From: Candidatus Latescibacterota bacterium
Lineage (GTDB): Bacteria > Latescibacterota > UBA2968
DNA: 64,000 nucleotides
Assembly (NCBI GenBank): GCA_965222605.1
Contig: OZ244960.1
Span: forward strand, 6,048,001-6,112,000
Direction of reading: 5' to 3'
Positions 40,732 to 50,719 of the stretch are shown in pieces. Made by a program: the position numbers and the translations under genes. Within the stretch, counting starts at the first letter, position 1. Every line of letters begins with the position of its first letter. The notes below the pieces were generated by a model. The model had not been told where the DNA came from. It searched no databases and worked only from the letters and a program-made list of their open reading frames with translations.

Positions 40732-41001
40732 ATGGATCAAAATGAACGAGGAACGATAAAGGATATTGTTAAAGTGATCTATCACTCCAGGGGTGACTGG
40801 CGCACGCCAGGGGGCATAGCGAGAGATCTCGAAATTCCTTCTGAAACAGTAACCCAAATCATCAAAGACCATCGAGAATTTTTTATTTTACCAGATGACG
40901 AGCCTGCGAAATTTGCTTTTCTTCCCAGCGGTTTCGATGCTGTGTCACTCACTGATCGTGCGCGAGATTTATATCTCCAGGAGCTAACGCTGAGTTCATA
41001 G
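40732..41001 (+). CDS. Hypothetical protein (possible winged helix)
   Basis: WRTPGGIARDLEIP; 89 aa. Confidence 0.45.
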   Translation: MDQNERGTIKDIVKVIYHSRGDWRTPGGIARDLEIPSETVTQIIKDHREFFILPDDEPAKFAFLPSGFDAVSLTDRARDLYLQELTLSS

Positions 41002-41143
41002 CAAACGATGTATCCCAGAGTGTTGTGGCCCTTATACCACATAACCACCCCTCAAAAAAAAATCGTAACCCCCCCGGGAAAACCCAAAACCCCCACCCCT
41101 CTCCCACTTCTACACAAGAGGTAAAGATGTAAGGAGACAAGAG

Positions 41144-41266
41144 TTAAAAACGCCGGATAACTCGAAAACCGAAGCTGCCGTCCCGGAGAACGGTGGTAAA
41201 CCCGCTGCGATTCGCCGAACGCAAGTCCCCCGGTTCGCCGTACCACGAACCACCACGCAACACGCG
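41144..41266 (-). repeat. DGR variable repeat VR2
   Basis: 41159-41203 aligns to TR 44360-44404 with 14 mismatches, 13 at TR adenines. Confidence 0.9.
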
Positions 41267-43154
41267 ATAACCGCAGGCCCCAGACTCCCACTCACTCCCG
41301 TCTGTAGGAGCACCCACATAGCTATCATTCCAACAATCTTCCACCCACTCCCACACATTACCGTGCATGTCGTGAACACCCCAACCATTCGCGCTGAAGC
41401 TACCCACTGGTGCCGTCTCATCATTATCCCACCGACTGCCGCAACCATCGCAATTGGAACGGTTGCGACCTATCTCGTTACCCCAGCTATACCGCGTATC
41501 CGTCCCTGCCCGTGCCACATACTCCCATTCTGACTCGCTCAGTAAACCATACCTGTGACCCGTCCTTGCTGACAACCAACGCACATAAGACTCTGCATCG
41601 TCCCAACTCACATTGATCACTGGCCGATTACCTCAACCCCAGCCTCTATCCTCAGGACGATGCCCACCGCATCCTCCTGCATTTACACATGCATCCCACT
41701 CAGAAAACGTCACTTCATACACACCCACGGCCAGAGGATACCCTATATTCACGCGATGACGAGGTCCCTCATCATCATGACGGCCATCCTCGCCACTGGA
41801 TGACCCCATCGTGAATGATCCCGACGGCACTACCACCATCTCTGGGCATTCCGCACAGTCCTTACGTCCAATAATGCTATCCAGACCCGCGCTCGCTTTC
41901 TTATGTCCAGGCTCCAATGCCAATACCGCCTGATACTTCTCCCACGCATTCGCACCAGCAGGACTCGTCAGACGATCTCGTGCAAGATCTTCCTCTGCAC
42001 CTGATAACAGCGCAGACACCCTCGCTGCGTGTTCTCCTTCCTGCGCTTTAAGACGCTGATTGGGCACATATTCATATTGATAATATGAGACACCCCCTAT
42101 CAACACTGCAAGCAGACAGGCAATCGTAGCAAATAATTTCCCTTTAGATTTTTTGGGAGATTCTGATCGGTCATCGGTGCGCTGATGCACGGGGGACATC
42201 GACTTTCTGGCGATCCTGTCGTTCCGGTGGGGGAGTGGGTGGAGGCTCTGTCGGAGGAATACTCACGCCGCTTCCTGTTTCTTCTCCCAGCGCAACACGC
42301 CATTCAGCGATACTTTGTGGACGATTCGCCTTATGTACCTGCAACGACCTATCTATCGCTGAAAGAAATTCGTCACTCGCTCGACCCGCACATTGCTCAA
42401 CCACTGGCATCAGCGCGTCTTGGACTACTCTTTCTGTCGCATCCTCCGGCACTTGACCGGTCAACGCATGGTAGCACACGGCTCCCAATGCATAGATGCC
42501 TGTCCAGGGTCCTTGATCACCTCGACTTGAATACTGCTCTATTGGCGCGTAGCCCGGTGTGATGATGGACGTAATCGAACGGCTCTTCGTACTTATCGCT
42601 TGCCGCGCTGCGCCAAAGTCCAGCAACACAGGCGAATGGTCCGCATCCCGTATGATGATATTGCCCGGCTTGATGTCCCGGTGCAAGAAATCAGCCCCAT
42701 GCACCACCTCCAAACCTTCGAGGATCGGATACAAAATGGTTTTGAGTTCTTCTTCCCTCAGTGTCCCTCTGCTTTGAAGAAACTTCGATAAGGTGTCACC
42801 CTCGGCATATTCCATCACAATATACGCCGTGCCATGTGCCTGAAAAAAATGATGCACTTTAATAATGTGGCGATGGTCAAACCGGGCTAAGGTGCGCGCT
42901 TCGTCCCAAAAGCGATCCAATCCCCACGCAAAATCCGAGGCGGCCTGGGAGGACAGCGGTACGACCGACATATCGTGATCACGAACCGCAAGACCTTCGG
43001 GCAAATACTCTTTGATTGCCACGGGAATATCCAGTGTCATATTCCAGCCGAGATAGGTAATGCCAAAGCCGCCTTGACCTAAGATGCGGTGAAATTCAAA
43101 ATCCTGTATGCGCGTGCCCTGTGGCAGTGCCAATCGGTGGTGTGATTCGTTCAT
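41144..43154 (-). pseudogene. Ser/Thr kinase-TM-FGE-sulfatase/CLec protein, DGR target 2 (frameshift plus nonsense codon)
   Basis: Kinase motifs LGQGGFG, VAIK, HRDIKPGN, DFG; frameshift at ~42193 relative to the paralog; in-frame TGA at 41633-41635 in GWG*GNRPV; C-terminal RVLRGGSW..GFRV. Confidence 0.88.
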
Positions 43155-44170
43155 CTCGTTCCTTTCGATTGGGTTGTGGTGTCGGGGGCTGTTAATGAAT
43201 TCGCGGGGGTGTCCTCAGTCTTTTCCTTTGACGATTCCTCGCTCACTTTGCCTGTATCGGTCTGCTTTGATTGCTGAACGGGAGACCCTGTGAGCTTTTC
43301 TTTAAAGGCAGACCAAAGTCCCGACAAGCCTGTTTCTTGTTTTGATTCTTGCGTCTCTTCGCGCGGACTGGATTCCTCATCGGGAAGCATGCCCTCCCCG
43401 CAATCGGCTTCTGGGCGGTAGAGCAATACCGTGGTATTGTCCTGATTGGGCCGTCCGACCTCTTCCACAGCATGGATGAGTGCCTCGGCGACTTCTTCAA
43501 GCGGCGCGTCATGCTTGTTCTCTATAATACGCGCGATCTCTTCATCCTCAAGGGTCATTACACCATCACTGGCCAATAACAGGCGGTCGCTTTTCCGTAT
43601 CGCAATCGGTTGGGATGAGACATCTATCAGGTGAATCTCATCGCCCATGACCGCTGACCGCAGGGCATGGCGGTTGGAATCCGTCGCCGCTTCTTCCTCT
43701 GTCATGCGCCCGACCGCCACCAGGTTTGCAAGCACGGGTGCCATGGAGTGATCGGCATTGAGGCGGTGCAATTTGCCGTCGCGAAACAGCCACAAGGGAG
43801 AATCGCCCACGCTGATCCAGTCGAGTCCATGTTGTGAAATGACTGCTGCGACCACGGTTGACCCCATGCCCTTCAGTTCGGGATTTTCGTCCGTTGCTTC
43901 GGCAAGGGCGTCATTGGCTGCGGTGAGACAGGCGCGCAGACAATCCGGTATTGGCCCCTCTGTGCTGTGATAGGTCTCCACAAAGGTCTTGACCACCATT
44001 CTGCTGGCCGTATCGCCGCTGACGTGTCCCCCCATCCCATCGGCGAGCAATAACACTTCGCCTCCGTCAGTGTCGGGATCGCCGCGCTCAATCAGGCCGT
44101 AATCGTCCTCCTGATATTCACGTCCGCCGGGAATTTGTTGTGCGGCAAATCGGCCTTTTAGTCGATTCAT
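43151..44170 (-). CDS. PP2C-family Ser/Thr phosphatase
   Basis: GREYQED, LADGMGGH, MGST, VGDS, DHS, LASDG, QDNTT. Confidence 0.92.
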   Translation of the reverse strand: MNRLKGRFAAQQIPGGREYQEDDYGLIERGDPDTDGGEVLLLADGMGGHVSGDTASRMVVKTFVETYHSTEGPIPDCLRACLTAANDALAEATDENPELKGMGSTVVAAVISQHGLDWISVGDSPLWLFRDGKLHRLNADHSMAPVLANLVAVGRMTEEEAATDSNRHALRSAVMGDEIHLIDVSSQPIAIRKSDRLLLASDGVMTLEDEEIARIIENKHDAPLEEVAEALIHAVEEVGRPNQDNTTVLLYRPEADCGEGMLPDEESSPREETQESKQETGLSGLWSAFKEKLTGSPVQQSKQTDTGKVSEESSKEKTEDTPANSLTAPDTTTQSKGTR

Positions 44171-44227
44171 GGTGTTCCTCCATAACGGCGCAAGACCGCT
44201 GCTGTTTCGTAAGCATCGTAAAATATA

Positions 44228-44405
44228 GTGGTGTCCCTTCCTCACAGGTGCGAGGCAAAAGGAACACCACTCCTACCTCATCATGACCGCCCCTGGACGC
44301 CCCGTTGCACTCCCGGCAACATCCTGGTGTTATCGGTTCTGGCTAACGAGCGTGCGGACAACTCGAAAACCGTTATTGTTGTTCCGGTTTTCGGTGGTAT
44401 TCCTG
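44228..44405 (-). ncRNA. DGR template repeat (3' remnant, 44355-44405) and downstream structured flank
   Basis: AGG AAT ACC ACC GAA AAC CGG AAC AAC AAT AAC GGT TTT CGA GTT: AAY-rich copy of both VRs; long hairpin at 44228-44270. Confidence 0.88.
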
Positions 44406-44748
44406 TGTGCGGGCACAGGCGATGCGCCGCCGCAGGTCACGCTTGAGGATTTCGTGGTCAATAGCAGGGAAGTAGCGATAGAGGTCGCAGCGCAATACAT
44501 GGCGAAAACGGTCTCGGAATGTTTCGTAGCGGGCTATGGCGCGATGGGTTCCCTTGCCCTTGCGATTGGCATAGGTATCATAAATAAAGCCGCGTTCAAA
44601 AATCGGCTCGCATACCGCGCAAAAAGCGTGATGCACCACCCGATCTCGAAAGGGCGCAGCCGAGACGATGCGGTGCTTGGGGTCGAATATCTCGATCTCG
44701 GTGTATCGCCCCGGACGGTATTGACCTGTTTTGAGTTCCCGCTCTAAG
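44406..44748 (-). pseudogene. DGR reverse transcriptase, internal fragment
   Basis: YRPGRY..IFDPKHRIVSAAPFRDRVVHHA, YANRKGKGTHRA, LRCDLYRYFPAIDH; no start and no YxDD region. Confidence 0.9.
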
Positions 44749-44912
44749 GGATTCCAACACGTTGAGGGCAGTACTTTGTATGCGGTCGCCCAGTAGGAAC
44801 TTCTGATTGCGGGGAAATCGCTCCAGTGTAGGCACGAGCCACAGGATGAACTGGTAATGTGCCTCCAGTGCCGGCCCAGTTTGACGTGCGTTGATCCTTG
44901 ACAGATCATTCA
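44747..44912 (-). pseudogene. avd: DGR accessory variability determinant, N-terminal half
   Basis: AGGAG RBS; ALEAHYQFILWLVPTLERFPRNQKFLLGDRIQSTALNVLESL four-helix-bundle Avd pattern, fused out of frame to RT. Confidence 0.82.
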
Positions 44913-45043
44913 AAAGATGGACTCCTGATAAAACACCCCTCAAAAAAAATCGTAAAACCCCCGGGAAAACCCAAAATCAACCCCCTCAAAATCCAAAACT
45001 CTCCCTCCCCCAAAAAAGAGGTAAAGAGGTAAGGATAAAAGAG

Positions 45044-45166
45044 TTAAAAACGCCGGGCAACTCGAAAACCGTAATCGTCGTACCGGTATACGGTGGGATT
45101 CCAGAAGCGATTCGCCGAACGCAAGAGCCTCGGATAGTAGTACCACGAACCACCACGCAACACGCG
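45044..45166 (-). repeat. DGR variable repeat VR1
   Basis: 45059-45103 aligns to TR 44360-44404 with 8 mismatches, all at TR adenines. Confidence 0.92.
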
Positions 45167-46978
45167 TCTATCGCAATTACCAGACTCCCACGCAGACCCA
45201 TCTATAGGTGCCCCCACATAGCTGTCATTCCAACAGTCTTCCACCCATTCCCACCCATTCCCGTGCATATCGTGAACACCCCAACCATTCGCCCTGAAAC
45301 TTCCCACAGATACGGTATTCCCTCTATACACACCTTTCCGACCAGTACCGTAGGTATAATTACCATTGTAATTCGCTTGATCCGTCGATATTGTTGTACC
45401 AAAATGAAAGGGCGTCTCCGTACCCGCTCGCGCCACATACTCCCATTCCGATTCACTCAGTAAACCATACCGGTGACCTGTCTTTTGAGATAACCAACGC
45501 ACATAAGACTGTGCATCGTCCCAACTCATGCACACCACAGGATGGCTATCCGCCTGAGAATAATTAGGATTACGCCAACTTATCCCTCTTCGATTCTCCC
45601 ATTTAATGGAGGAACTATTCCAAACATAACAAGAATTTCCCGCATTGTACCCCGTATCTGACACAAAACTGGAAAACTCTCTTCGCGTCACTTCATACAC
45701 ACCCACGGCCAGAGGATACCCTATATTCACGCGATGACGAGGGCCCTCATCGTCATAACGATCTTCCTCGCTACTGGGAGAACCCATCGTGAACGATCCC
45801 GACGGCACTACCACCATCTCTGGGCATTCCGCACAGTCCTTGAATTTCCTGCCTGCGCGATGAAGCTCTGCCTCGCGCGCTGCTGACAACCGATCTTCCA
45901 GTTCCGATTGGTAATAATAGACACCCCCTATCAGCACGGTAAGCAGGCAGGCTACTGTTGCAATTAATTTCCCTTTAGGTTTCTTGGAAGATTCTGAGCG
46001 GTCATCGGTGCGCTGATGCACGGAGGGAACAGCGACTTCCTCTCGATCCTGTTTTTTTGATGGGGGAGTGGTTGGAGGCTTTCTCGGGCCGCTTCCTGTT
46101 TCTTCTCCCAGCGCAACACGCCATTCAGCGATACTTTGCGGACGATTCTCCTTATGCACCTGCAACGCCCAATCTATTGCCGATAGAAATTCGACACGCG
46201 CTTGACCCGCGCATTGCTCAGACGCTGGAATGAGCGGATCAAGGGCTACTCTGTCTGGTGCCTCATCAGGACCCTCACCGGCCAAGGCGCGATAGCACAC
46301 CGCACCCAATGCATAAATGTCTGTACCCGGTCCTTGTTCTCCCCGACTCGAATACTGCTCTATTGGCGAGTAAGGTGGTGAGATAATCGCATCAATAGAC
46401 TGGCTCCTAATACCGATCGCCTGACGCGCTGCGCCAAAGTCCAACAGCACAGGCGAATTGTCCGCATCCCGTATGATGATGTTGAGAGGCTTGATGTCAC
46501 GGTGCAAGAAATCAACCCCATGCACCTCCTCCAAACCATCCAGTATCGGATACAAAATGGCTTTGAGTTCGGCTTCACTCAGCGGCCCTCTGCTTTGCAG
46601 AAACTTCGATAAGGTCTCGCCCTCGGCATATTCCATCACGATATACGCCGTGCCATGGGTTTGAAAAAAGCGATGCACTTTAATGATGTGGCGATGATCG
46701 AACCGGGCTAAGGTGCGCGCTTCGTCCAAAAAACGATCCAATCCCCACTCAAAATCATCTCGAAACTGACTCGCTTGTGGAGCTACGCTGTTGTCGCCTG
46801 TGCGCGTGGCTATATCCGATGGCAGGTATTCCTTAATCGCAACGGCTTTGTCCAGGTTGTGGTCAAAGCCGAGGTAGGTCATGCCGAAGCCGCCAAATCC
46901 GAGCACGCGCACCAGTTCGTATTCCTGGAGCCGATGCCCCTGGGGCAGGGCATTGAGGGGGTGGTGTGCGTCGTTCAT
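45044..46978 (-). CDS. Ser/Thr kinase-TM-FGE-sulfatase/CLec protein, DGR target 1 (intact)
   Basis: LGFGGFG, VAIK, HRDIKPLN, DFG; TM LIATVACLLTVLIGGVYYY; [45 protein letters not shown]. Confidence 0.93.
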   Translation of the reverse strand: MNDAHHPLNALPQGHRLQEYELVRVLGFGGFGMTYLGFDHNLDKAVAIKEYLPSDIATRTGDNSVAPQASQFRDDFEWGLDRFLDEARTLARFDHRHIIKVHRFFQTHGTAYIVMEYAEGETLSKFLQSRGPLSEAELKAILYPILDGLEEVHGVDFLHRDIKPLNIIIRDADNSPVLLDFGAARQAIGIRSQSIDAIISPPYSPIEQYSSRGEQGPGTDIYALGAVCYRALAGEGPDEAPDRVALDPLIPASEQCAGQARVEFLSAIDWALQVHKENRPQSIAEWRVALGEETGSGPRKPPTTPPSKKQDREEVAVPSVHQRTDDRSESSKKPKGKLIATVACLLTVLIGGVYYYQSELEDRLSAAREAELHRAGRKFKDCAECPEMVVVPSGSFTMGSPSSEEDRYDDEGPRHRVNIGYPLAVGVYEVTRREFSSFVSDTGYNAGNSCYVWNSSSIKWENRRGISWRNPNYSQADSHPVVCMSWDDAQSYVRWLSQKTGHRYGLLSESEWEYVARAGTETPFHFGTTISTDQANYNGNYTYGTGRKGVYRGNTVSVGSFRANGWGVHDMHGNGWEWVEDCWNDSYVGAPIDGSAWESGNCDRRVLRGGSWYYYPRLLRSANRFWNPTVYRYDDYGFRVARRF

Positions 46979-47013
46979 AGTATTTCCCTTGATGGTGTGT
47001 TCTTATTCCCGGG

Positions 47014-47718
47014 TTATTGTCCAGCACTTTCTTCTGTATCCTGCCAGTCAAACGCATCGCCGCACAGGGGCACAAAGCGAAGAATCGTATTGCCGATGCT
47101 AATATGACTCAGTGCGGGCAGTTCAGTCGGAATGAGCACAGGTTCGTCGTTGAGGTAGGTCAGGTTGGTGCCGCCGCCATGCTGTACGTAAAATTTCTTG
47201 CCCCGGGGATCGTAGGTGACAACCGCATGTCCACCGCGCGAAATTTGATCATCACCAAAATTGAGTTTGACGCGTGCGGTTTCTCCGCGCCCAATGGGAT
47301 TGGAGCCATAGCCCAATTGCATGGCCCTGCCTTTGCCCGGTCCTTCGACAATGGCCAACCATCCCACAACGGGATCATCCATGCCATCGGCTTTCTCTGC
47401 GCTTTCTTCCGACGATTGCGGACCTTTCTGCCTGGTACGACCACCTGTGTTTATGCGCGTGCGTTCTTCTTCATCCGAACGTCCCGCGTCGGTGGCTCGA
47501 CCACCGCCTTTCGGTACTGTTGGCCGTTGTTGCATTGGCTTTGTGGGATCCTCTAAACGTCCCCCACCGGGGGCTTGACCACCGCCCGGTGGCACTGACG
47601 GCCTGTTTGCGCCATCAGGTTGTGGCAGGGTATTCTCATCACGCCTGACATTCGGTGATGGAGTCGGCTTGCTTTTTTCTTCAACGATATTGCCATCGGG
47701 ATCGCGATAAACAGGCAT
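47014..47718 (-). CDS. FHA domain protein with disordered N-terminus
   Basis: VVGWLAIVEGPGKG, IGRG, ISRGGHA, TNLTYLN. Confidence 0.85.
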   Translation of the reverse strand: MPVYRDPDGNIVEEKSKPTPSPNVRRDENTLPQPDGANRPSVPPGGGQAPGGGRLEDPTKPMQQRPTVPKGGGRATDAGRSDEEERTRINTGGRTRQKGPQSSEESAEKADGMDDPVVGWLAIVEGPGKGRAMQLGYGSNPIGRGETARVKLNFGDDQISRGGHAVVTYDPRGKKFYVQHGGGTNLTYLNDEPVLIPTELPALSHISIGNTILRFVPLCGDAFDWQDTEESAGQ

Positions 47719-47730
47719 AACACTATCCTC

Positions 47731-48515
47731 CTATTTTTCATAGAGTCGGTTGATTAAATTATCCAAACAGTACTGCCCCGATTGATTCAGGGCCATTTCT
47801 TCTTTTTGTTGCACGATATGCAGGGCAAAAACCAACAGAGCCGATTGGATCAGGGCGAGTAAGGTCGTGTAAAAGGCCACGCTTAGTCGCCCGGTGATCT
47901 CCGCCAGTAGCGTTGGATCCTGGGGCTTTTCATTGCTTCCCGCATAATCCAGGGCAAAGGCGATCCCCACAACCGTGCCAATAAAGCCCAACGTGGGGAT
48001 CAGCCAGACGAGGTACCGCAACATGGTATATTTGAGTTCAAGCTCGTGCTGAAATAACTCCAGGGAGGAATTTAATAGGGAATTGGTCTGATTGACCGAT
48101 CTGCTCCCTTGAAATTGCAAAATGCAGCGCATGGTTAAGCGCTGTAAAAAGAATGTCCGTTCTCCCACCACTGGGCGCATCCTGTTGTAGAGAGAACCCA
48201 GGTCTTGCGCCCGCAACATGGTTGTTTCGTCTTCCGGCAGGTATCGCTTTGATAGTTGCGCCAATTCCAAATTAGATTGATTAAATTGCCCCCAAATCTC
48301 GCCACAGCCAATAAAAAACATAATCCACATGACATTTTGGATCGTAAACGGATAGAGGAAACTTTTCGTATGCCGGTCGAGCAAAAAAGCACCGGCTTGT
48401 GAATCCTTGCAGACAAAAAAATGCTCATTAACGCAATGGCGATAATGCCAATAACCGTACTAACCCCAAGTGCGATGAGGCGTTGATTTGTCTCTGCATT
48501 TTGACCCTGTGTCAT
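47731..48515 (-). pseudogene. MotA/TolQ/ExbB proton-channel family protein, frameshifted near 48407
   Basis: IPTLGFIGTVVGI and LSVAFYTTLLAL helices; N-terminal TM lies in a different frame. Confidence 0.75.
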
Positions 48516-48516
48516 G

Positions 48517-48909
48517 TTAGTCCTCGTTTTGAATGATTTCACCTGTTTCTATTTTGCGACGCACCGCCCCCTCGGGTAAGTCATTCGTCGGCGATTTCTC
48601 TTCGCTCGAATGCTCATCCCCTTTATTATCACCAGCACCTCGAGCGACCATAGCGATAAGTTGTGGTGCGGTCGTCTGATAGCGACCAAGCAAAATAACG
48701 TCCGTCGGACGAATAAAATCCTGCCTGATGGGGATCCATTCGCCATTTCGCGCAACATAACTTCCGCCGCTACTGCCGCAATCGGTCAGATAGAACGTCC
48801 CTTTTGCAGTCATGACCAACTCGGCGTGGATGCGCGAGACTGTGATGTCGTCAAGGCGAATATCCATGTCCGAATTGCGACCAATTTTATACGTGGAAAA
48901 GTTGGACAT
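48517..48909 (-). CDS. FHA domain protein
   Basis: IGRNSDMDI, VSRIHAEL, DCGSSGGSYV. Confidence 0.85.
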   Translation of the reverse strand: MSNFSTYKIGRNSDMDIRLDDITVSRIHAELVMTAKGTFYLTDCGSSGGSYVARNGEWIPIRQDFIRPTDVILLGRYQTTAPQLIAMVARGAGDNKGDEHSSEEKSPTNDLPEGAVRRKIETGEIIQNED

Positions 48910-48925
48910 TTCGAATCCTTTCTGT

Positions 48926-49306
48926 TCAACCGAGTTTAGCACCTACAAGGTACCCGACGTTCTGCTCTGTCAACTGTATTAAAAAATCGATACTGCCAGA
49001 CATATCTACTACGATTACAAACTTTTTTGCTATGGTCTTGATACCCAGTAAAACAGATGTACTATCTTTCTGTACCGCTTTGCCTCCGCCTCCTGCAAGC
49101 TTGTCTTTCTCTCCTATGAGTTTATCTTTCTCTCCCATGAGTTTGTCTCTCTCTTGGATGAGTTTGGCTATTTCTTCAGCATCGCCGGTATTTGGAAAGT
49201 ATGGAAACAGGACAAAGGCAATGAGTATGAACGCGCCCATTGCCGAAGCGAAGAGATCGAGCGCAGACATGCTGAAGATGTTCAGTTCTCGGTTGCGGGA
49301 TTTCAT
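48926..49306 (-). pseudogene. Membrane-anchored coiled-coil/VWA-like protein, apparently truncated
   Basis: FSMSALDLFASAMGAFILI anchor, EKDKL repeats, VIVVDMSGS MIDAS-like motif followed by a rapid stop. Confidence 0.55.
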
Positions 49307-49321
49307 TACGAGGCACTCCTG

Positions 49322-50719
49322 TTAAAATTTTGAAACCATGACCTCCAGACCACCCAGCGCAACGGTAGCGCCATAGTCTAACTGCGCTAGGCGAAATGGA
49401 GACAAGCGATGACCATTCAAGAACGTTCCATTACTCGAGTACAGATCTTCGATATAAAATTGGTCATCCTGAACTGTAATTCTCAAATGGCGCCGGGATA
49501 CCTGTTCATCATGGATAACTTCATCTACCAGATCGGGATGCCTGCCCAGTGAAAGTCCCGGGCGTTGCTCTGCAAATTTTTCTGGCGATAGCGCGATGTG
49601 AATGCGGTTGCCCTGACCGTCAAATCCGGCCAGCACCAGTCCACGTGTTGGGCGTTGTTTTTCTGGTTGTTGTTTTTCTACTTGTTGTTGAACCGCGCCA
49701 TCGCGTTCTCGCCTTCTGATAGGGCGGCTCATCTGATCTATGACTTGAATGATCTGTTGCCGGGGTCTTCTTAAGCCAAGTAACAGGGCTGCCAATGTCA
49801 AACTGCCCAATAATATGCCCCAGACAAGAGTTTGCTGGCTCGCTTCTTCTGCACGACGCTTTGCTTCATCTGCCTTTTGTTGCGCCTTTTCCATTTCCCG
49901 GTTTGCTTCTTCTGATCGGCGTTTGGCTTCTTCTGCCTGACGCTTGGTCTCTTCCGCCTCTTGAAGTGCCTCTTCCGATCTTCCAGAATCTCCATTACCG
50001 ACATTTGACAAACACGGACTGTTCTCTGATTGGAAGGGAATAGTGTGATATTGCAAGAGCCTTACCAATTCCTGAATATGAGAGGCATAGAAAGCACCTG
50101 GTTTCTCTCCTTCGATTCCCTGAGTATTCACGCCAACCGCTCTGCCACAGTCATCCAACAAAGGCCCACCGCTGTTGCCGGGATTGATTTGTGCACTATG
50201 GTGAAGAATGCGTAATTGTTGATTTCTACCCTCAAGTCCCCAGGGAGCCGTATAATCTCGGCTAATGTCGCCACTTCGCGCTGTTGTATCTTTGGCTTTC
50301 TCGTGTATATCGCCAACACTGGGATAGCCGAGAGAATACACCTTTTGTAATTTTTTGATTGGCGCGAGCGAAAGAGTAATCGGCGAAAGATTTATATTTG
50401 GGACATGCAGGATTGCCAGGTCGCGTTGAAAGTCTCTGACGACCACTTTCGCATCATACGATGTACTGGAATTTGTTGGCACTACCACGATTTTAAGGCC
50501 ATTCTCAATCACATGGTAGTTTGTCGCAATATAACCACTACAGTTTATCACAAATCCAGAACCTGTACCGGTCCCTTGACTTGTCTCTGTTACAATACGC
50601 ACGACACTCTTCTCAATTACATCAATAGTATCGACCAGCGCGGCGGCTGCATCGTGCCCGTGAAGTAGAAATGCGAGAACAAGACCGGCAAGACGCCAAT
50701 ATTTGAGTTTGTTTGGCAT
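49322..50719 (-). CDS. Signal peptide-trypsin-like protease-coiled coil-TM-FHA protein
   Basis: GSGF, TNYHV, DLAIL, NPGNSGGPL catalytic triad; TM; LGRHP, VSRRH, SSNGTFLNG. Confidence 0.9.
   Translation of the reverse strand: MPNKLKYWRLAGLVLAFLLHGHDAAAALVDTIDVIEKSVVRIVTETSQGTGTGSGFVINCSGYIATNYHVIENGLKIVVVPTNSSTSYDAKVVVRDFQRDLAILHVPNINLSPITLSLAPIKKLQKVYSLGYPSVGDIHEKAKDTTARSGDISRDYTAPWGLEGRNQQLRILHHSAQINPGNSGGPLLDDCGRAVGVNTQGIEGEKPGAFYASHIQELVRLLQYHTIPFQSENSPCLSNVGNGDSGRSEEALQEAEETKRQAEEAKRRSEEANREMEKAQQKADEAKRRAEEASQQTLVWGILLGSLTLAALLLGLRRPRQQIIQVIDQMSRPIRRRERDGAVQQQVEKQQPEKQRPTRGLVLAGFDGQGNRIHIALSPEKFAEQRPGLSLGRHPDLVDEVIHDEQVSRRHLRITVQDDQFYIEDLYSSNGTFLNGHRLSPFRLAQLDYGATVALGGLEVMVSKF

Follow-up and report, generated by a model that had tools for sequence, protein, structure and literature searches.

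A 64,000-nucleotide (nt) stretch of a Latescibacterota genome (the window; positions 6048001-6112000 of a single contig of 6,338,376 bp, with completeness of 98.68% and contamination of 5.41%) very probably carries an inactivated chromosomal diversity-generating retroelement (DGR) of the order avd, reverse transcriptase (RT), template repeat (TR), together with kinase target genes whose variable repeats (VRs) are frozen. RT, Avd and TR are all truncated and we detected no other RT in the genome, and for these reasons we regard the element as dead; because no other RT is detectable, the VRs that it once wrote would now be fixed. The original prediction, made from the letters of the window alone, had identified the locus as a DGR, and while its derivation from a DGR holds, the element itself is a relic. 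All of its DGR-related features lie on the minus strand, and those that form the relic and its two targets are as follows, where G016 is another genome of the same genus and L033 is its cassette locus.

45044-46978, minus strand: target 1, intact gene for a 644-amino-acid (aa) Ser/Thr kinase with a hydrophobic helix and a C-terminal FGE-sulfatase (CLec-type) domain (Pfam)
45059-45166, minus strand: VR1, 3' end of target 1 (alignment to the TR remnant and the G016 TR)
44745-44943, minus strand: avd 5' fragment, Avd residues ~14-68 of 132 (tblastn, NCBIfam)
44406-44744, minus strand: RT fragment, residues 63-176 of 375, lacking the catalytic half (tblastn, PDB ranking, tree)
44360-44404, minus strand: TR remnant, the final 45 nt of the template repeat (A-rich, 18/45)
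44226-44359, minus strand: IMH*-like TR flank and structured spacer RNA region (84% nt identity to L033 11039-11224)
41144-43154, minus strand: target 2, a kinase-transmembrane (TM)-FGE paralogue in three open pieces (open reading frame (ORF) list, Pfam, tblastn)
41159-41266, minus strand: VR2, 3' end of target 2 (alignment to the TR remnant)

Results

Remains of a cassette with two internal deletions

The L033 locus of G016 carries an intact cassette in which three kinase-FGE genes are followed by avd, RT and TR, then by FHA and protease genes (the FHA and trypsin-like/FHA ORFs were identified by eye, with no domain scan) and by further kinase-FGE genes. The G016 Avd has 132 aa and scores 106 bits against the DivGenRetAVD profile, whose cut-off is 80, and 67 bits against bAvd; the RT has 375 aa (RVT_1, 62 bits); and an A-rich TR of 110 nt lies directly 3' of the RT. 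Of the changes that separate four L033 VRs from this TR, 17-18 per VR are at adenines and 0-1 at the 77 non-A positions. L033 is a textbook DGR of the order avd-RT-TR, and three segments of the window align with it:

window 45109-44747, L033 9326-9707: end of the target, intergenic sequence and 5' part of avd
window 44748-44406, L033 10039-10381: RT (84% nt identity)
window 44412-44226, L033 11039-11224: 3' end of the TR and spacer (84% nt identity)

Two internal deletions separate these segments. Lost to deletion 1 (~331 bp) are Avd residues 69-132 and RT residues 1-62; deletion 2 (~657 bp) cost the RT its residues 177-375 and the TR its first ~65 nt. The YVDD motif of the G016 RT, seen in its translation, falls in the part that deletion 2 took. 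What survives of the coding sequence by tblastn is Avd residues 14-68, with homology to G016 stopping at window 44747, and RT residues 63-176, joined to the avd fragment in another frame. The flanks overlap by just 2 and 7 nt at the junctions, which lie inside unique avd and RT coding sequence.

That Avd-like and RT fragments stand next to the TR, as had been predicted, is borne out by their identity to the G016 proteins (85% and 94%, respectively; tblastn) and by the NCBIfam profile DivGenRetAVD, of which the avd fragment covers positions 4-44 of 104 at 36.6 bits, under the 80-bit cut-off because the fragment is truncated. Pfam returned nothing for either fragment at E<=0.01, including no RVT_1 match in the RT fragment, and at E<=10 just bAvd (16.7 bits). 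NCBIfam contains no DGR-RT model, and the RT was placed by PDB ranking and a tree instead. Its best PDB match is 8ub7_A (E 3.6e-24), listed there simply as 'Reverse transcriptase' and which we take to be the Bordetella DGR RT, compared with 2e-8 for a group II intron RT and 2e-4 for retron-type RTs. In the tree, the fragment pairs with the G016 RT (88/85) within a 100/100 clade of 19 RTs found in an Avd/TR context, and this clade is separate from four RTs that carry a group II maturase domain. Both lines of evidence place the fragment, by its sequence, in the DGR lineage rather than with group II intron RTs, the phylogenetic check that the original prediction had proposed.

Among NCBIfam models, that of group II introns scored best for the RT, but its 124.5 bits are far under its 300-bit cut-off and are uninformative on membership. 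As a separate observation, several contigs of a genome of the same order (G028) hold ten copies of a 463-aa RT ORF with RVT_1 and group II maturase domains. This ORF belongs to a group II intron that is proliferating there and is not related to the DGR.

Adenine-specific differences between the template remnant and the variable repeats

The TR remnant (44404-44360; 18 A and 27 non-A positions) aligns without gaps to the 3' ends of both target genes. VR1 (45103-45059) has eight mismatches to it, all eight at TR adenines and none at the 27 non-A positions (one-sided Fisher test, p=2e-4), and VR2 (41203-41159) has 14, of which 13 are at A and one at non-A (Fisher p=1.4e-6). Ungapped alignment thereby reproduced the coordinates, strand and mismatch counts that had been read from the letters. 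For the lost 5' part of the TR we used the full-length G016 TR as a proxy, which over 63 columns offers 15 A and 48 non-A. Against this proxy, the 5' part of VR1 shows nine changes at A and seven at non-A (p=0.0011), and that of VR2 eight and seven (p=0.0044); over all 108 columns of the comparison with the full G016 TR, VR1 has 17 A changes and 10 non-A changes (p=5.3e-5). Mismatches to a relative's full-length TR are still enriched at A, and the codons at which VR1 and VR2 differ upstream of the remnant, a pattern that had been noticed from the sequence and is real, stand opposite A-rich codons of that TR. The remnant itself differs from the G016 TR at three of 27 non-A positions and at none of the 18 A positions.

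Past a common block of 12 nt, all VRs carry one 3' flank while the TR remnant and the G016 TR carry another. DNA folds of the 103 nt 3' of VR1 and VR2 gave no significant hairpin (z of 0.44 and 0.79 against shuffles), and a Bordetella-like hairpin or cruciform 3' of the VRs was rejected on these values. Separately, about 100 nt following the stops of VR genes are conserved among copies (window 44930-45043 and 41030-41143, minus strand; genome 5843582-5843700 and 5844442-5844560), so that the duplicated unit reaches beyond the VR gene; this stretch is pyrimidine-rich, then G-rich, then a run of T, and forms no significant hairpin.

The target genes

Both genes that flank the relic had been described as receptor kinases with an FGE-type CLec fold, and Pfam, hydropathy and PDB matches agree with the domain order kinase, TM helix and FGE-type CLec. 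In target 1, Pkinase (119.5 bits) covers residues 20-238 and FGE-sulfatase (203.4 bits) residues 384-642 of 644; the kinase motifs G-loop, AIK, HRD and DFG lie at residues 27, 47, 159 and 180, and hydropathy averaged over 19 residues peaks at 338-356. With Pkinase scores of 119.5 and 126.2 bits against a cut-off of 31.7, targets 1 and 2 are classed by sequence as Hanks-type Ser/Thr kinases. The FGE domain of target 1 matches PvdO (PDB 5hha, E 1.5e-59), and its C-terminal 145 residues, which include VR1, match the FGE-type CLec-fold DGR target TvpA of Treponema denticola (PDB 2y3c, E 7.8e-6). These matches identify target 1 as a predicted CLec-type fold protein with the VR at its C-terminus, like TvpA, although its FGE domain is far closer to PvdO. 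TvpA is not known to have a kinase domain.

Target 2 is open in three pieces (43154-42171, 42199-41633 and 41620-41144), with Pkinase in the first and FGE-sulfatase in the two later ones, and matches target 1 at 72% and 53% identity in two frames (tblastn). It is a decaying pseudogene in this strain, interrupted by a frameshift near 42190-42199 and by an in-frame TGA at 41635-41633. To compare populations we used assembled Logan contigs, in which assembly drops rare variants, and missing cover was not read as absence. In some of these contigs plus-strand position 41635 is G, which turns the TGA into CGA (Arg), at depths of 15.8/19.5 in X3, 25.4/25.4 in X8 and 4.08/32.8 in X1, and an X8 contig carries two additional letters at 42190 that would restore the frame; some short contigs over target 2 may derive from paralogues or related species. 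These variants hint that both lesions are recent and lineage-specific.

The region 3' of the template remnant

The 137 nt 3' of the TR remnant (44226-44362, minus strand) fold as a single strand better than shuffled sequences (z=-2.13). When the window was aligned with 14 related cassettes, 22 of 41 predicted pairs showed compensatory double changes, and two sequence blocks were invariant across all 15. A search of 40900-47200, spacer included, returned no Rfam family at E<=1. The predicted spacer structure is preserved by these measures. In the Bordetella system, spacer RNA primes cDNA synthesis, and by analogy the window spacer would fit a cDNA-priming RNA of that type.

Further variable repeats and relics in the genome

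The original prediction held that one TR had served two targets, one on each side of it. One TR does match both, but 'two' holds in the window only, as five more full VR sites with the same scaffold and flank (anchors 1443621, 1445931, 2698619, 5843556 and 5844416) and one partial site (5845055) lie elsewhere in the genome. The five other full VRs show 9-13 A changes and 2-8 non-A changes relative to the TR remnant; summed over all seven, 79 of 126 A cells and 24 of 189 non-A cells are changed. Kinase fusions among the VR genes are confined to the two genes of the window, and other kinase matches in the genome are 26-29% identical.

Further avd 5' fragments lie at genome positions 2698661-2698824 and 5844606-5844733, each just 3' of a VR-bearing FGE gene, and the latter forms one reading frame with a C-terminal FGE fragment whose VR is degenerate. 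No trace of an RT was found at either. With these two fragments, the genome holds at least three cassette-derived relics.

Alternative explanations

Of the explanations that compete with an inactivated element, the first, which we consider very improbable, is that the DGR is still active, with an RT supplied in trans by another replicon, a prophage or a co-resident cell using the TR remnant and spacer to diversify the last 45 nt of the VRs. Such activity could account for the fully preserved spacer structure and for the absence of any non-A mismatch between VR1 and the remnant, and the same cassette is present in many co-occurring lineages. Against this, the genome yielded no RT of any kind: Pfam RVT_1 gave no matches in the whole genome (one candidate scored), tblastn of the full G016 RT found nothing but the window fragment, and an unfiltered hidden Markov model of 18 cassette DGR RTs, run against 85,933 six-frame stop-to-stop ORFs of at least 40 aa, recovered the fragment alone (E 2.5e-69; next best 0.22). 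Avd is truncated as well, and the adenine-specific differences extend into the 5' part of the VRs, where no template survives. VR1 is identical in X1 contigs, and an X3 contig from a further study (record 13) differs from it at one position in 387 nt (45044-45430).

It is very improbable that the deletions are assembly artefacts, such as a collapse between VR/TR-like repeats, and that the true genome has its cassette intact. Near-repeats abound at the locus (two paralogous genes, VR and TR), and many joints among short contigs look chimeric, with pieces from paralogues and other organisms; one X3 contig also halts at the 44405 junction. The junctions, however, lie in unique coding sequence with their minimal flank overlaps, not between long repeats, and contigs of three runs cover them as in the window. 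Contigs from X1, which may be the source sample, are exact over 44176-44454 and 44578-44837, covering both junctions with no difference. A 4,073-nt contig from another study (X7, record 20) runs ungapped over 43377-46738, and hence over both junctions, and has 58 substitutions, which means that the relic is also present in a strain with ~1.7% divergence. Two other congeners carry RTs that are truncated differently. The deletions are real and are shared beyond this genome.

Least probable of all is that no retroelement acted here, the gene ends and the 'TR' being no more than paralogous repeats that diverged in the ordinary way, with an adenine bias due to chance or composition. The genome does have many FGE-domain paralogues, and its more distant VRs carry up to eight non-A mismatches, but this explanation already fails against the Fisher values for VR1 and VR2 and the summed changes in seven VRs, against a 'TR' placed between an RT fragment and a spacer that match an intact congener cassette at 84%, and against four VRs of that congener in which almost every change is at A.

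Several points weigh against an inactivated element with frozen targets, or against parts of that conclusion. An RT could sit on an unassembled plasmid or phage, given the single contig and the 5.41% contamination, and contig data cannot show low-level polymorphism at A sites. VR1 could be among the sites at which the X7 contig differs. The X3 contig that stops at the RT-TR junction (record 12) covers 44181-44405 exactly up to that point, and the X3 sample could hold another variant, perhaps with a longer TR. The 2-8 non-A mismatches of the other five VRs may stem from a different or older TR copy. The target 2 frameshift sits in a run of C and is a possible sequencing error; X1 contigs agree with the window there, and the TGA is a lesion of another type. 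The receptor topology of the targets depends on a single hydropathy peak.

Distribution in the genus and across phyla

VR-like ends occur in 14 of 20 other genomes of the genus (E<=1e-5), while intact Avd and RT occur together in one of the 20. An intact RT of the cassette lineage is found in G016 only; G008 retains residues 1-114, with a TAG, and G014 residues 227-348. Avd exceeds the DivGenRetAVD cut-off in G008 and G016 only. The remaining RVT_1 matches in the genus come from ORFs of 579-1282 aa and so represent other kinds.

Beyond the genus, RTs with 69-79% identity are present in metagenome-assembled genomes (MAGs) labelled Binatia, Dehalococcoidia, Alpha- and Gammaproteobacteria, Acidobacteriota, Nitrospira/Nitrospirales and another Latescibacterota. 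By label, the cassette-bearing MAGs represent at least six phyla, and many are single-chromosome records. At 25 of 26 loci (L035-L060), a TR-like stretch with 80-89% nt identity to the G016 TR lies at the end of the RT, after avd, the same placement as in G016 and for the remnant in the window. An FGE gene precedes avd at 24 of these loci; at L058 it comes after the TR, and at L049 an FGE match lies ~1.6 kb before avd. In the tree, an RT from Binatia joins one from Nitrospira (support of 97/100, branches of 0.06), and it is because these two are near-identical sisters that the sequences argue for horizontal spread of the cassette. Horizontal transfer of DGRs is repeatedly reported (Doré et al. 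2024, PMC10907252).

Neighbouring genes

Two further genes adjoin the relic and its targets:

47014-47718, minus strand: FHA-domain protein gene directly upstream of target 1 (Pfam FHA, 29.2 bits)
43151-44170, minus strand: PP2C-type Ser/Thr phosphatase gene between the relic and target 2 (Pfam PP2C_2, 50.8 bits; SpoIIE, 41.3 bits)

The ATG of the PP2C gene at 44170 was read from the sequence by eye. The stretch of ~800 nt between target 1 and this gene contains no intact gene. Upstream of target 1, ORFs of FHA-domain, MotA/ExbB-like and trypsin-like plus FHA types stand in a row (47014-50719, minus strand; compared by eye, with a Pfam scan on the 47014-47718 ORF), and by eye this run resembles the genes 3' of the TR in G016 (L033 11359-15366). 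From this by-eye gene comparison, the DGR appears to be placed within a conserved Ser/Thr phospho-signalling island.

Discussion

By analogy with the Bordetella paradigm, we propose that in the intact stage a complex of RT and Avd would have reverse-transcribed the TR-spacer RNA with errors at adenines, and that the cDNA would have replaced the 108-nt VRs at the 3' ends of genes for FGE/CLec-domain proteins. The variation would have landed on the presumed extracytoplasmic ligand-binding domains of two membrane-spanning Ser/Thr kinases encoded beside FHA and PP2C genes, a setting that suggests a role for the targets in signalling. Two internal deletions then took the C-terminus of Avd with the N-terminus of the RT, and the catalytic half of the RT with the 5' two thirds of the TR. 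Target 1 remains intact with its last-written variant, and target 2 is decaying.

The DGR of Bordetella phage BPP-1 comprises Avd, RT, an adenine-specific TR/VR pair and a CLec target with a C-terminal VR, in the order avd-TR-RT. The window element is like it in all of these components, in the differing 3' flanks of VR and TR and in a structured spacer RNA after the TR, but differs in its order avd-RT-TR, its chromosomal location, its many targets of the FGE subtype and its inactivation. The order avd-RT-TR corresponds to Architecture B2 of Wu et al. 2018 (PMC5758913), who also list a kinase-containing class of targets.

Closer parallels are found among cyanobacterial DGRs. In those described by Vallota-Eastman et al. 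2020 (PMC7517822), an N-terminal Hanks-type kinase is combined with a C-terminal CLec domain that bears the VR, paralogues are dispersed, TR-VR homology remains with no RT nearby and cassettes are degraded. The element in the window resembles these systems in that a kinase is joined to a VR-bearing C-terminal CLec domain and paralogues lie both in the locus and away from it. Unlike the cyanobacterial DGRs, it belongs to Latescibacterota, its kinases have a predicted membrane helix and PP2C and FHA neighbours, and its cassette is seen partway through decay, as two internal deletions that could be mapped show. In Thiohalocapsa PB-PSB1 (Doré et al. 2024, PMC10907252), each DGR serves several targets, the FGE/CLec sensor domains sit on proteins of signalling or conflict, Pkinase is among the target domains, the elements were acquired horizontally and redundant components are degraded. 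The several targets, the FGE/CLec domains on signalling proteins, the degraded components and, apparently, horizontal acquisition are shared with the element in the window, while the decay ascribed there to transposons and MITEs and the STAND NTPase targets differ from the two clean internal deletions and the kinase targets seen here. Both kinase-CLec targets and degraded DGRs are thus already published, and the mechanism itself is not new. A search of the literature on DGRs of Latescibacteria or sponge symbionts found nothing on this element; the supplementary tables of PMC5758913 and PMC7517822 may list similar cassettes.

Since 14 of 20 congeners have VR-like ends and one an intact cassette, and three RTs are truncated in different ways, these cassettes could be transient 'write-then-lose' devices. 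We regard as evenly balanced the proposal that one lineage spreads horizontally among at least six phyla, is recruited to receptor Ser/Thr kinases in this genus and is repeatedly destroyed after writing, leaving frozen variable receptors behind. The idea that diversification machinery goes once useful variants arise has been raised for cyanobacteria (PMC7517822). The locus and the genus-wide counts together offer a concrete case for such removal.

Altogether, this study describes a DGR caught during its loss: comparison with an intact congener places its breakpoints to the base, and its targets still bear the variants last written to them. The study also adds Latescibacterota to the groups with kinase-CLec DGR targets. 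Its main value lies in a mapped example of the loss of a DGR after its targets were written, together with what appears to be the spread of one cassette across phyla.

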